Assembly (NCBI GenBank): GCA_947445025.1
Contig: CANFCB010000004.1
Span: 1-56,064, forward strand
Direction of reading: 5' to 3'
Origin: Myxococcales bacterium
Lineage (GTDB): Bacteria > Myxococcota > UBA727 > JABDBI01
DNA: 56,064 nt
How positions within the stretch are numbered: the stretch's first letter is position 1; the number at the start of each line of letters is the position of its first letter. Of the stretch, positions 15,493-21,675 are shown piece by piece. The notes under the pieces are model-generated. The model did not search any database. It saw nothing but the letters and a program-made list of their open reading frames with translations, and was not told the origin of the DNA. Position numbers and translations under genes: made by a program.

Positions 15493-16802
15493 AAAAAACC
15501 TTTATCCTTGACACCAACGTTCTTCTTCATGATCCAAGAGCCATGTTTAGCTTTGAGGATAACAACGTCGTTATTCCCATCTATGTGGTTGAAGAAATTG
15601 ATAATTTCAAAAAAGAACTTTCCGAATTAGGACGAAACGCACGGCAGGTCAGTCGTTATTTAGACAATCTCAGAGCAGAGGGTTCGTTATCTACCGGCGT
15701 GAAGCTAGATAGCGGTGGATCATTGCGTGTAGCCACAAGCGCACGCATGTTGCCGCCAGAAATCAGCACGGACAGAGGACAAGATTCCCGAATTTTGGCA
15801 GTGGCCCTCGATCTGCAAGAAAAGCTAGCTGGCATCGAAAAAATTGCATTCATTACCCAGGACACCAATTTACGCATTCGCGCCGACGCTATTGGGATAG
15901 AAACTGAAGGCTATGATCCGGAGCGCATCGAAACCGATGAATTGTATTCGGGATTCAGCGAGATAGAAGTCACTGGGCAACAAATTGATCACTTTTATAC
16001 CAACAACAGCCTGACACTACCTGATCCTTATTATGCACCGAACCAGTTTCTGGTACTGCGAGATCGTGACAATCCATCTCATACTGCGCTTGGCCGTGTC
16101 GACTTGCGTGATCACTGCGTAATGCCCATTTCGACTTTAAAGCATCAGGCCTGGGGCATTCGTCCTCGCAATAAAGAGCAAATTTTTGCGCTTGACCTAT
16201 TGCTAGATGATTCCATAAAACTGGTCACACTCATTGGCAAAGCTGGAACCGGTAAAACATTAATTGCCATCGCTGCAGGTTTACAAAAAGTTGCAGAAGA
16301 GCGCGTATTTCAACGTCTGCTTGTCAGCAGGCCTATTTTTCCCTTGGGCCGAGATATTGGATATTTACCCGGGAATATTGAAGAAAAATTAAACCCATGG
16401 ATGCAGCCTATATTTGACAACGTTGAATTTCTCATGGGACTGACGACAAAGGGACAAAAAACCTCGCGAAGCTATCGCGAACTGATTGATCTGAACCTCA
16501 TGCAAATTGAGCCTCTGACTTACATTCGTGGTCGATCTATTTCTTCGCAATTTATGATTGTCGACGAAGCGCAAAACCTAACTCCGCATGAAGTAAAAAC
16601 CATTGTTTCGCGTGCAGGCGAAGGCACCAAAATTATTCTAACTGGCGACCCGTACCAGATTGATAATCCATACGTTGATTCTACCAACAATGGCCTTGTT
16701 CATACCATGAATCGCTTTAAGTCAGAGCGTATCGCCGGTCACGTTAGATTGGAAAAAGGCGAGCGATCTGAACTTGCGGAAATTGCGGCCAATATTTTGT
16801 AG
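15489..16802 (+). CDS. PIN-PhoH (PhoH2-type) protein
   Basis: PIN start ILDTNVLLHDP; GKAGTGKT, YIRGRS, DEAQNLT, GDPYQID. Confidence 0.96.
   Translation: MKKTFILDTNVLLHDPRAMFSFEDNNVVIPIYVVEEIDNFKKELSELGRNARQVSRYLDNLRAEGSLSTGVKLDSGGSLRVATSARMLPPEISTDRGQDSRILAVALDLQEKLAGIEKIAFITQDTNLRIRADAIGIETEGYDPERIETDELYSGFSEIEVTGQQIDHFYTNNSLTLPDPYYAPNQFLVLRDRDNPSHTALGRVDLRDHCVMPISTLKHQAWGIRPRNKEQIFALDLLLDDSIKLVTLIGKAGTGKTLIAIAAGLQKVAEERVFQRLLVSRPIFPLGRDIGYLPGNIEEKLNPWMQPIFDNVEFLMGLTTKGQKTSRSYRELIDLNLMQIEPLTYIRGRSISSQFMIVDEAQNLTPHEVKTIVSRAGEGTKIILTGDPYQIDNPYVDSTNNGLVHTMNRFKSERIAGHVRLEKGERSELAEIAANIL
16584..16608 (+). repeat. Direct repeat copy 1 (within phoH)
   Basis: CCGCATGAAGTAAAAACCATTGTTT; 24/25 identical to 21651-21675. 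Confidence 0.85.
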
Positions 16803-16812
16803 AATCATACGT

Positions 16813-19800
16813 CTAATTTTTACTTTCAGCCCATAAATACAAAGTAGGAATTACTAATAAGGTCAAAAGTGTTGAGGTCAGAAGTCCGCCTATCACCACG
16901 GTGGCCAGCGGCCTTTGCACCTCAGCACCAAGCCCTGTATTCAAGGCCATAGGAATGAAACCAAGACTGGCAACCAGCGCAGTCATCAGCACCGGTCTAA
17001 GGCGAATCAATGAACCCTCGTATACCGCCTGCCGGACCGAGGCGCCTTTTTCGCGGAGTTGCCCAAAAAATGTCACGAGAACCATCGCGTTTAAAATAGC
17101 AATTCCCGTCAAAGCGATAAAACCAATGGCGGCAGAAACACTAAAAGGAATACTGCGCAAGTAAAGTGAAACAATTCCGCCGGTCATAGCGAATGGAATA
17201 CTCATATAGACAAGCAGAGCCTGTTTCATACTATTGAAATGCTTCAACATCACCAGGAAAATCCCTATTAAAATAATGGGCACCAGTATGAGAAGTTTTG
17301 CTCGTGCCCGTTGCAGATTTTTAAATTGCCCTCCCCATGCTAACGAATAGCCTGGCGGTAATTTGAGCTCTGCTTCCAATTTCATTTTAGCGTCTTTGAC
17401 AAAACTTTCCGTATCTCGCCCAGAAAGATTCACAGCAATACCAGCATAGCGCTGGCCTCGATCATGCGCGATGGTGGTCACCTGTTCATTCTTCTCGATA
17501 CGCGCGAGTTTTTCAAGTTTAACATAACCACGATCAGGAAGCGCTATTTGCAGCTGGCCTAGCTCGGCTGGGTTCTCACGACATTGCTCTGTCAGCCGAA
17601 CCACAATGGGAAAGCGCCAAGAAGACTCATAGTAACTTCCCACCGTATAGCCAGCCATGGCTGACTCCAGCGCACGATTAACCTCGCTAATGTCAACGCC
17701 GTAACGCGCAACCCGCTCGTGGTTTATTTGAATATTTAAGACCGGACTTTTTCTAAGCGCACTCAAGGCATCGAGCTCAACTTCAGACGCACCAGGCACT
17801 TTCTCAATTTTTGCTTTGGCGGCATCTAAGAGTTCAACCAGTTGATTCAAATCTTGTCCGTAAATTTTCAGACTAACATCAGCCCGACTGCCATCCAGAA
17901 TTTCGTTAAAGCGCATCTCGATGGGTTGATTTTCCATAATTTCTTGGCCGGGAACTTTTTTAGCAAGCGCAGCGCGGATTTTGGTAAACAATTTTTCTTT
18001 GGACTGCTGCACACCTGCGTTTTTTAAAATAACAAAGGTATCAGACAAATGAACACCCATCGGATCTGTCGCACTTTCTGGCGTTCCCATACGTGAAAAG
18101 ACAGTCTTAACCTCTTTAAAAGCAGATATTATTTTTTCGGACTTTTTTTGCATCTCCACGGATTTATCTAATCCGATGCTGCTGTCTCTGGTCAAATTAA
18201 TAACCATATCTCCTTCATTTAAGGCTGGCATAAAATCAGCACCCAAGGTTGCGAACAGCCAAAATGAAGCAACAGAAAAAACTATGACTGGCATCAGCAC
18301 GAGAAAACGACGGTGCAGTGAAAATACTAACACAGGCTGGTAGGCCCGCTTAATCAGAGAAAAAAGCCACGTGTCATGATGATTCTTTCTAACACTTCCT
18401 AAAACCAGGTGCACCAAAATCGGCATCAACAAAAGTGCGACCACAAGCGAAGCTCCCAATGCCATTAAAACCGTTTCCACCATGGGACGAAACAGTTTTC
18501 CTTCAATGCCCTCGAGAGCCAAAACTGGAACATAAACAGCCATAATCAAAAGCAGTCCCACCGATACGGTTCCCGCAACTTCTTTAGCAGAAAGCAACAC
18601 GATTTTGACGCGCTCCTCCCATGTTAGCGGGTTTTTTTCCTCAGAAAAACGGCGCAAAATATTTTCTACAATTACCACCGAGGCATCTACCAACAAACCA
18701 AAATCAATGGCACCCAAGCTCATTAAATTGGCAGAAATACCAAAATAGCTCATGCCTAGCGCCGCAAAAAGCATTGAAAGCGGGATAGCCAGCGACACTA
18801 ACAATGCTGCTCTTAGATTACCGAGCAACAAGAGTAGCACCGCAAACACCAAGGCTGCGCCTTCTGCCAAATTTCTGGCAATCGTCTTAATAGTTGCATC
18901 CACTAAAAATTGTCTGGAATATAGTATTTTTGTTACTACATCGGCTGGTAGCGGAGCCTGCGCCAAGGCCGCTTCGGCATCCATAGCAACTTGCCGAGAA
19001 TTTGCTCCATTCAGCATAAGGACTATTCCAAGTACCGCCTCTTCTCCATTATACGTGGCCGCTCCCAGACGTTGCGCAAAATCCTCACGCACCTCAGCCA
19101 CGTCTTTAACGAGAATCGGTTTTCCATAAACATCAATAGCAATCACGATCTCGCGAATTTGATCTAGATTGGTGATAGCCCCTTGGGTGCGCACGATGAT
19201 CTGCTGTCCGCGATCTTGAATATAACCGCCACCAAAATTTTCACCCAGCGTTTCTAGTTTTTTGATGAGGTCATTCACCACCAAACCCCTCGTCGCTAAT
19301 TGGTGAGGATTGGCATCCACATGAATCTCTTTCTTGAACCCACCCGTCGAATCGATTTCAGCAATACCGGTCACAGTGGACTTTAAATGCCTACGAACCA
19401 CAAAGTCTTGCAGCGTGCGTAAATAAAGAAGACGTTCCGTTTGCGTTTTTTGCGCAAGCAAAGAGCCAGGTTTGGCCAATAAAGTGTACATAAGCACCTC
19501 ACCTAAACCGGTGGTAATCGGTGCCAGTTCTGGCGACAAACCTTTAGGCAAGAGTGAACGAATATTTTGCACGCGTTCAGATACTTGCTGGCGCGCCCAA
19601 TAGATATCGGTGCCATCTTCAAAAAAAATGACGACTTGAGAAAGACCATATTTAGCCAAGGAACGAATATCTTTGCTGTGGGCAATACCGGCCAACTCTG
19701 CTTCAATAAACGAGCCCACCGTCTTTTCTATCTGCTCAGGATCGAGCGCGCCGGTTTTGGTGTTCACCACCACTTGAACGGGCGTAATATCGGGCACAGC

Positions 19801-21246: not shown

Positions 21247-21570
21247 CTAGCCGATAGGCGGACGGAATACTTTGCCAACGAAAGTTTGGGCAGTCATGCT
21301 GTTGACGATAACAAAAGGTAAAAAGCAGGAAGTCTCTATGAGTGTCCTTAGTTGGATATGTGCGAGTGCACTGGCAAAAAATACGGAAGCACAGCAGCCA
21401 CAATTATGAACTTGAGCAGTGCATCCATTTTCTGAATGATTCTGAACTGGAATTTGTGTTTTCTCACTTACGTCTGGAGCTTCTTCCACGGCGCAGCATT
21501 CCGATGCCTGGGCAAAAAAACCCGCTTGGCATAGGAAAATAAATAAGATCCGTAAGATGCCTGCAACCAT
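21247..21570 (-). CDS. Small Cys/His-rich exported leader protein ending in FRPPIG (CzcI/DUF2946-like)
   Basis: Signal-like N-terminus, CC and HNCGCC motifs, C-terminal RPP; first gene of the czc cassette. Confidence 0.65.
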   Translation of the reverse strand: MVAGILRILFIFLCQAGFFAQASECCAVEEAPDVSEKTQIPVQNHSENGCTAQVHNCGCCASVFFASALAHIQLRTLIETSCFLPFVIVNSMTAQTFVGKVFRPPIG

Positions 21571-21650
21571 ATTATTTTAATTTATATTTAAGCTGCCAGC
21601 AAAAGTCATCCGCTCTTTGCCCTATCAATTTCACCAAAAGTGAAGAGGTC

Positions 21651-21675
21651 CCGCATGAAGTAAAAAGCATTGTTT
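21651..21675 (+). repeat. Direct repeat copy 2: phoH fragment cut by the IS3 end
   Basis: CCGCATGAAGTAAAAAGCATTGTTT (PHEVKSIV); identity to phoH stops at or next to the IS terminus. Confidence 0.85.

Follow-up and report, generated by a model that had tools for sequence, protein, structure and literature searches.

In the DNA of an uncultured Myxococcales bacterium, a block of heavy-metal efflux genes (czc) lies between two copies of a short direct repeat, one inside the 3' part of a phoH-type gene and the other at the end of an insertion sequence (IS) of the IS3 family. Does this repeat record how the czc block arrived, or something else? A sequence-only reading had taken the former view, proposing that the block came with a replacement 3' end of phoH, its target gene. 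We analyzed a stretch of 56,064 nucleotides (nt) from contig CANFCB010000004.1 of assembly GCA_947445025.1 (positions 1 to 56,064, hereafter the window, to which all coordinates refer unless another contig is named), along with its source assembly (G000) and 30 relatives that were searched with 13349-27000, G001 being the sole genome of the same genus. The results indicated that the second copy is a phoH stub attached to the IS end and not the footprint of czc arrival. This 25-nt copy is inert DNA, a non-functional scar that is unusually legible but basically an ordinary product of recombination. A cassette bracketed by a direct repeat is not in itself evidence of arrival at that place.

The features of the locus are as follows (aa, amino acids):

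15489..16802, plus strand: phoH-type gene, PIN plus PhoH ATPase, 437 aa, intact (Pfam PhoH 164 bits, PIN_4 120 bits)
16584..16608, plus strand: repeat copy 1 (b), phoH codons 366-373 plus one base, with the frame read from coordinates
16813..19911, minus strand: czcA-type RND heavy-metal efflux pump gene, 1032 aa (TIGR00914 CusA/CzcA 1062.8 bits; Pfam ACR_tran 860.7 bits)
19921..21180, minus strand: outer-membrane efflux protein gene, 419 aa, in a czcC-like position (Pfam OEP 86 bits)
21247..21570, minus strand: Cys-rich open reading frame (ORF) of 107 aa, first gene of the czc block, kept in G001 (weak CopL_fam match, 20.4 bits with a cut-off of 40)
21571..21650, minus strand: czc upstream region, within which colinearity with G001 stops at 21649
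21651..21675, plus strand: repeat copy 2 (b'), a 25-nt stub of phoH sequence adjoining the IS end
21676..23008, minus strand: IS3-family insertion sequence, intact, single copy, without target-site duplication (NF033516 IS3 transposase 287 bits; rve, HTH_21)
21730-22659, minus strand: IS orfB (DDE/rve), overlapping orfA
22647-22934, minus strand: IS orfA (HTH), with an A8G slippery run at the orfA/orfB overlap
23009..23076, minus strand: m', 68 nt left from the 3' end of a larC-type gene, the IS interrupting its last codon (91% identical to 25187-25254, family D1; protein match to residues 378-406)
23077..25181, minus strand: Y region, a lineage-specific gene of 647 aa (23177-25120) with its flanks, without a DNA match in the 30 relatives
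25182..26405, minus strand: larC-type (Ni_insertion) gene, intact (Pfam Ni_insertion 26.2 bits, cut-off 22.1; 80% aa identity to G001)

The repeat and the IS end

The two copies of the repeat (family D4 of our repeat search) agree at 24 of 25 positions (96%), and the longest exact words common to them are 16 and 8 nt. Their sole mismatch, C in b and G in b' at 16600/21667, turns ACC into AGC at codon position 2 and is non-synonymous. Copy b starts 219 nt ahead of the final base of the phoH stop codon, while b' ends at 21675 and directly abuts the IS, which starts at 21676; on both the repeat and its position at the IS3 terminus, the sequence-only reading was exact. With up to three mismatches allowed, the 25-mer matched only b and b' in the window, and none of 100 dinucleotide shuffles gave two or more matches to it. 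That reading had suggested estimating the significance of such a match. Under a uniform model, the chance expectation is 7.6e-9 for the given 25-mer at 24/25 or better in the window and 1.1e-5 for an all-against-all comparison of 25-mers in 13 kb. No third copy was found across the 1.085-Mb assembly.

Since the source assembly is a metagenome bin that is 73% complete at 1.085 Mb, chance similarity or misassembly might be suspected of having produced the repeat. We regard this as exceedingly improbable: the expected number of chance matches is ~1e-5 or less, both junctions are bridged by contigs from different studies, and the exact words shared by the copies would be too short to mislead a 31-mer assembler. 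Lake and freshwater metagenomes of 8 studies contain the stretch, with 18 runs listed, and the Logan contigs of 4 of these 18 runs were compared with it. Record 22 of run X3 (study P2), which covers 21483-23470, and record 4 of run X1 (study P1), which covers 16574-22934, each hold the czc upstream region, the 25-nt copy and the IS as contiguous sequence; the other IS end is bridged by the same X3 record, by record 13 of run X13 (22694-23153) and by record 5 of X1 (22919-27500). Because contigs of two separate studies bridge the junction, the junctions are neither chance nor an assembly or binning artefact, and the artefact for which the sequence-only reading had allowed is excluded. Just two alternative joins were seen in the four runs, both small-sided and near 25142-27237. 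A join of phoH to the IS, or of czc to larC, occurred in no contig of these runs, contigs being a form of data that drops rare variants.

The assembly contains one copy of the IS. Its left tip at 21676 reads TGAAGTGCACCCC, the same letters with which an IS remnant at a different G001 locus starts, and its right end, ...TTTGGGGTGCATTGTA, is identical at 14 of 16 bases to the end of a related G001 element. Because the tips match the ends of these related elements, both termini are intact. They carry terminal inverted repeats (TGAAGTGCACCCC... and TACAATGCACCCC...), the right tip beginning with TA and not TG. We considered that the right tip might be truncated, its last 5 nt (TTGTA) being the larC stop region, and rejected this, as the related G001 element ends in ...TTTGGGGTCCATTATA, with 14 of the last 16 nt alike. 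Insertion of an IS3-family element normally leaves a short target-site duplication of 3-4 base pairs (bp). Here, the three bases outside the IS are TTT and CTC, and there is no such duplication. Transposition from a pseudo-end, in which TGAAGT in the stub would mimic the IS tip and the IS would have moved with a piece of its flank, was also rejected; it leaves the phoH bases at 21651-21655 and the absent target duplication unexplained.

The left flank of the IS ends at the equivalent of phoH 16608 and the right flank starts at the equivalent of larC 25187. The phoH stub is thus on the left and the larC stub on the right, each on the strand and side of its intact gene. This makes the scar a legible record, in which a single-copy IS carries pieces of two genes from an earlier position beside their intact copies, and from which a series of deletion and recombination events can be read in an uncultured bacterium.

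phoH and the czc block in relatives

The genome of the sole congener, G001, is colinear with the window at 85% over 13357-21649 and again from 25191, as confirmed by BLAST, and the DNA that is extra relative to G001 spans 21651-25181. G001 has the czc block at the same site, without the 25-nt copy, the IS, the 68-nt stub or Y; its junction consists of the czc upstream region, 3 nt and the larC stop, with no second phoH piece. Exact scans with both variants of the 25-mer gave 0 matches in genome_contigs and 0 in metagenome_contigs, two collections that may omit records close to our genome. We also surveyed the arrangement of phoH and larC in 20 genomes of the family besides G000, G001 included. 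The two genes are adjacent in 2 of the 20, namely G001, with czc between them, and G003, where they are convergent, 18 nt apart and without czc; they lie on the same contig more than 250 kb apart in 2, on different contigs in 7, and in the remaining 9 phoH and/or larC was not found. A czc pair of 70% identity is present at a different locus in G009.

The stub b' differs from phoH of its own genome at 1 of 25 positions and from that of G001 at 4 of 25, and the two phoH genes differ from each other at 3 of 25 sites within the repeat. A neutral relic dating from the species split, or from the shared czc insertion, would be expected to show ~10/25 differences, judging from the core synonymous divergence of 0.58 given below. 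Because 1/25 was observed where ~10/25 would be expected of a relic of that age, the phoH stub appears to be young, whereas czc occupies a site common to both genomes. For the same reason, we rejected the possibility that the stub is a relic of the original czc insertion in the ancestor of the genus.

Synonymous divergence (pS) was calculated with our own script as Nei-Gojobori proportions against G001, the one congener. It was 0.581 for the core genes of the window (6784 codons) and 0.324 for the czc block at 17361-21570 (1375 codons), a difference with p = 5e-48, and 0.481 for the last 181 codons of czcA. In phoH, pS was 0.61 before 16584 (365 codons) and 0.55 after it (72 codons; Fisher p = 0.53), and the value for the 3' part differed from that of the czc block (p = 0.001). 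The block of low divergence starts inside czcA near 17.36 kb, not in phoH. By these divergence tests, phoH has no allele breakpoint at the repeat, and its 3' end did not travel with czc. The tests also indicate that most of the czc block was exchanged by recombination within the genus, with the left crossover inside czcA, and that the block has a history of its own, younger than that of the core.

These results bear on the model of the sequence-only reading, in which a donor phoH 3' end entered together with the czc block, or with a replacement copy of that block, through a one-ended event or because a circularised fragment integrated. This would have pushed the resident phoH 3' end beyond czc, and the IS would later have removed all but 25 nt of it and what followed. 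In layout, the locus resembles the other 3'-end duplications of this genome (described below), the czc block does have a separate younger history, and single-crossover integration of recircularised fragments is known to give such duplications (56 of 60 clones in PMC3240628). Nevertheless, we consider the model very unlikely. G001 has czc at the identical site without a displaced phoH piece; phoH is unbroken at 16584, and its 3' end is more diverged than czc, whose stretch of low divergence begins within czcA; furthermore, only by chance would the donor have been joined within 3 nt of the czc/larC boundary. The sequence-only reading had expected an allele breakpoint in phoH and had held that an unbroken phoH, syntenic with czc in relatives, would speak against it. 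As far as one congener allows, the latter is what was found, and the proposal that czc arrived with a replacement phoH end is not upheld.

The phoH product scored 301 bits against the NCBIfam PhoH2 model, under the cut-off of 680, and has 95% aa identity to its G001 counterpart; its best named relatives, at 62-69% identity, are from metagenome-assembled genomes of Myxococcota or Deltaproteobacteria. The stop codons of phoH and czcA are separated by a 10-nt spacer (16803-16812) in G000; in G001, 35 nt with a hairpin-like inverted repeat are inserted there. The ORFs between the repeats comprise one ACR_tran match, one OEP match and one without a family; a Pfam search detected no site-specific recombinase encoded among these three, and the sole mobility gene, the DDE transposase, lies outside the bracket. 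Within the czc block (16813-21570), the pump and outer-membrane genes are 10 nt apart, without a gene of the CzcB membrane-fusion type between or beside them, and the layout in G001 is the same. No Rfam family exceeded its threshold over 15000-27000.

The czc operon and the IS transposase genes are co-oriented. On the minus strand, a promoter-like site at 21669-21696 combines a -35 element (TTGACT) in the IS end, a 16-nt spacer and a -10 element (AACAAT) inside the phoH stub, and is directed into czc. Such sites numbered 2, against 1.5 +/- 1.1 in shuffles, which is no enrichment, and a hybrid outward promoter of IS and stub driving the czc operon is speculation. A promoter-like site in the czc upstream region (21599-21571) was not above shuffles either. 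In runs X3 and X13, which belong to two studies, contigs agree with the window as far as 17128 and from 23588, and beyond these points carry sequence that is identical in both runs and unlike the window; these breaks, inside czcA and inside Y, may reflect a population variant, by insertion or replacement. Beyond larC, a second segment specific to G000 (28839-30413, where G001 has 79 nt instead) holds DUF3078-like and DoxX ORFs, with no flanking repeat seen.

Origin of the phoH and larC stubs

On the other flank of the IS, the gene at 25182-26405, which we take to be of the LarC type, provides the partner of m' at 25187-25254; the latter represents the final 68 nt of the gene, short of the last two bases and the stop. 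Stub and live gene end differ at 6 of 68 positions, all of them third codon positions and all synonymous (P ~0.0014 if positions were random), and polarisation by G001 places 3 to 4 changes on the stub branch. Because all six differences fall on third codon positions, the larC stub would appear to have evolved as coding sequence in another lineage, and thus to come from another functional allele and not from a decaying copy of the present gene. The larC side does look like a cassette event, in which Y arrived with a foreign larC 3' end and displaced the resident end. On the phoH side, the single difference in 25 is non-synonymous. A pattern search of metagenome_contigs for relatives of the larC-type protein gave 165 matches, of which 0 were confirmed.

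For the phoH side, we tentatively favor an origin in which a phoH'-IS-'larC deletion joint from a sibling or relative was placed beside the resident czc block by one-ended homologous plus illegitimate recombination. The IS would once have sat inside a phoH copy, between 16608 and 16609, the 25 nt being the phoH sequence at its left. In a sibling cell or close relative, an IS-associated deletion may then have created the joint, in which the IS takes the place of everything from the phoH 3' end through czc to the larC stop. DNA bearing this joint would have entered a chromosome that still held phoH, czc and larC, and been integrated there by homologous recombination on the larC side and by illegitimate recombination at the other, free end, 25 nt past the IS and ~8 nt upstream of the homology. 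In this way, the phoH stub and the IS would have been added beside the czc upstream region with czc kept, the IS being a passenger of recombination and not transposed. Y would have entered with its foreign larC 3' end by a similar one-ended event that left the 68-nt stub, either before or after the arrival of the IS.

A second recombination step is needed because the chromosome has kept the "deleted" DNA (the phoH 3' end and czc) right beside the joint, and the one-ended event is placed on larC because the insertion point lies within a few bases of larC homology, as seen from the G001 junction. Such an origin would also explain the single IS copy. It is favored by the order and strand of the stubs, which are those of phoH and larC, convergent neighbors in G001 and G003, and by the contrast in pS between czc (0.32) and core (0.58), a sign of recombinational exchange at this locus within the genus. 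Also in its favor are the precise, intact IS termini without a target duplication, which together with flanks that normally lie kilobases from each other mark an IS-associated deletion, and the apparent derivation of the larC stub from another functional allele. With regard to DNA uptake, DprA was found in G000 and G001 and ComEC in G001, both genes being widespread (10 of 14 controls).

Several points weigh against the deletion-joint origin. The phoH 3' end and czc, which the joint should lack, are present at 16609-21650, and the joint itself was found in no genome or contig, the exact 25-mer scans giving 0 and the four runs containing no contig that joins phoH to the IS. No microhomology is visible at 21650/21651, nor homology on either side. 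The path requires three rare events, and plain double homologous recombination is expected to be 10^2 to 10^6 fold commoner than the one-ended kind, according to PMC3240628. The single difference between b and b' is non-synonymous and hence does not mark b' as a separate functional allele. ComEC was not found in the 73%-complete G000. Finally, with one congener, polarity and timing rest on thin data.

The lost target duplication and the position of the phoH patch, directly beside the IS and a few bases from the expected larC stop, would be explained directly by one exchange between two IS copies, one in the dead larC end and a second in phoH at 16608/16609 in the same population. Y would first have displaced the resident larC 3' end next to czc, where an IS then inserted normally; the IS would have served as the homologous anchor, and the 25-nt phoH tail would have been joined illegitimately to the czc upstream region, replacing ~8 nt. 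The near-identity of b' to its own phoH (1/25 vs 4/25 to G001) is likewise accounted for. However, this exchange needs an IS copy in a gene only 5 kb off and in the same orientation, whereas the assembly has one IS copy and the four runs yielded no phoH-IS contig. We consider it unlikely.

The fewest steps are required if the dead larC end was broken, the IS inserted at the break, and repair synthesis filled the junction with 25 nt templated by phoH, which lies 5 kb off and on the same strand; neither another phoH allele nor an IS within phoH would ever have taken part. Such an in-situ filler fits a b' that is short, near-identical to the resident phoH and without a target duplication, and the insertion of IS elements into existing breaks is raised in PMC11708052. 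On the other hand, neither end of the 25 nt shows microhomology, and it would be a coincidence that the source gene has the right side and strand to mimic a deletion joint. We know of no documented templated filler of such a kind beside a bacterial IS element, and rate this origin as quite unlikely.

Y itself (23177-25120, minus strand) encodes 647 aa with a hydrophobic N-terminal segment and a tail rich in Pro, Gly and Ala; the protein had no match in G001. Its residues 23-79 contain two C2H2 zinc fingers of eukaryotic type, whose matches in the PDB (E = 1.7e-5 and 7.8e-5) are designed and INSM1 fingers, and Y may act on a eukaryotic host. The middle of the protein (residues 323-539) reappears inside larger proteins of two other genomes of the family and presumably contains an OTU-like Cys motif, a candidate seen by eye.

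Other gene-end duplications and known systems

A comparison of the whole assembly with itself gave 31 nearby direct-repeat pairs, 15 of which were inspected. In at least 6 of these 15, the repeat encloses one or two accessory ORFs, and one of its copies forms the 3' end of a gene. The pairs are listed below, with the names murG, rsmE, icd and EEP read from translations:

C6:33558-34902: murG; repeat of 108 + 58 nt, 95%; Gp49/HTH_37 toxin-antitoxin pair between
C12:31292-31965: EEP-type gene; repeat of 78 nt, 97%; ankyrin protein between
C5:20176-21633: rsmE-like gene; repeat of 51 nt, 100%; AAA_14/DUF4143 ATPase between
C11:11538-12344: icd-like gene; repeat of 45 nt, 100%
C31:9593-11166 and C3:58515-59482: repeats of 68 and 57 nt, 88%; small ORFs without family between

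The five pairs on C5, C12, C11, C31 and C3 have repeats of 45-78 nt that are 0.6-1.5 kb apart. At murG, the last ~282 nt are duplicated, with an internal gap, beyond the toxin-antitoxin pair; the site is empty in G001 (~100 nt vs 1.7 kb), which holds the toxin-antitoxin cassette at a different locus with 92% identity vs 79% for the flanks. Unlike the larC pair, these other pairs have differences at all codon positions. Their pattern matches insertion with long target duplication (PMC2853133) and the one-crossover duplications from recircularised fragments (PMC3240628). In addition, C8:34428-39331 encodes a repeat-rich protein of 1098 aa, Rhs/YD-like by eye, with smaller ORFs after it; repeats of 123 and 92 nt, at 97-99% identity, copy the coding sequence of its C-terminus, and the locus looks like an array of displaced toxin ends.

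The sequence-only reading had also proposed a repeated, integrase-free mode of gene capture. This is plausible from the larC side and from the six or more other loci, and did not stand for czc. Because an allelic larC stub, a separately evolving czc block and other 3'-end duplications occur together, our results point to frequent homologous and one-ended recombination as a route of accessory-gene gain in this Myxococcota lineage of small genomes. A broader claim, that accessory genes are routinely captured without an integrase at the 3' ends of core genes and that the phoH/larC junction is a hotspot of three piled-up imports, is possible though doubtful. If true, genes would be captured through the integration of circularised fragments or through homologous recombination at one end only, each capture leaving a displaced copy of a gene end, and the imports would be the exchange of the czc block, Y with its foreign larC end, and the IS as a passive passenger with 25 nt of phoH flank. 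The locus would then offer a natural case of an IS spread by recombination rather than transposition.

How does the locus compare with known systems? Integrase-mediated islands restore the 3' end of their target gene between attL and attR. The present locus resembles them in its direct repeat, with one copy in the 3' part of a gene and the other beyond an accessory block. Unlike such islands, it has no integrase in or beside the czc block; G001 has the block with one copy only, G003 has no block and its phoH lies 18 nt from larC, and phoH shows no allele breakpoint at the repeat (pS 0.61/0.55, p = 0.53, from one congener).

The original studies of homology-facilitated illegitimate recombination are said to be those of Prudhomme (2002) and of de Vries and Wackernagel (2002). 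As described in Amarir-Bouhram et al. 2011 (PMC3240628), it combines one-ended homologous with illegitimate recombination, usually at a microhomology of 3-10 bp. In the favored origin, the scar would be similar in that foreign DNA was added beside a homologous anchor, with one illegitimate junction and a donor allele unlike the resident one (6 of 68 differences on the larC side, 1 of 25 on the phoH side); the genus also has core DNA-uptake genes. Unlike the cases treated there, it is known from its product alone, has no visible microhomology, and involves a resident deletion of ~8 nt, vs ~1 kb typically.

For IS elements without a target duplication, Ngan et al. 2024 (PMC11708052) give three causes: recombination between ISs, adjacent deletion, and an IS at the center of a deletion. 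As in their cases, an intact IS here has non-duplicated flanks; where nothing is deleted, these are found kilobases from one another with order and orientation unchanged. Unlike in a deletion joint of that kind, the DNA due for removal, the phoH 3' end and czc, persists alongside.

Finally, in insertion with long target duplication, according to Furuta, Abe and Kobayashi 2010 (PMC2853133), accessory genes that include no mobility gene lie between direct repeats of more than 30 bp, which overlap the 3' end of an adjoining gene, and a related genome without the insert has a single copy. The Y/larC pair (68 nt, with one copy and no Y in G001) and the murG/toxin-antitoxin locus resemble this system. 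The czc/phoH repeat does not, being 25 bp long and lacking its second copy in the czc-bearing G001. The inserts here are also not restriction-modification genes, and the larC copies differ only synonymously, a pattern that speaks for two alleles and against duplication of a target.

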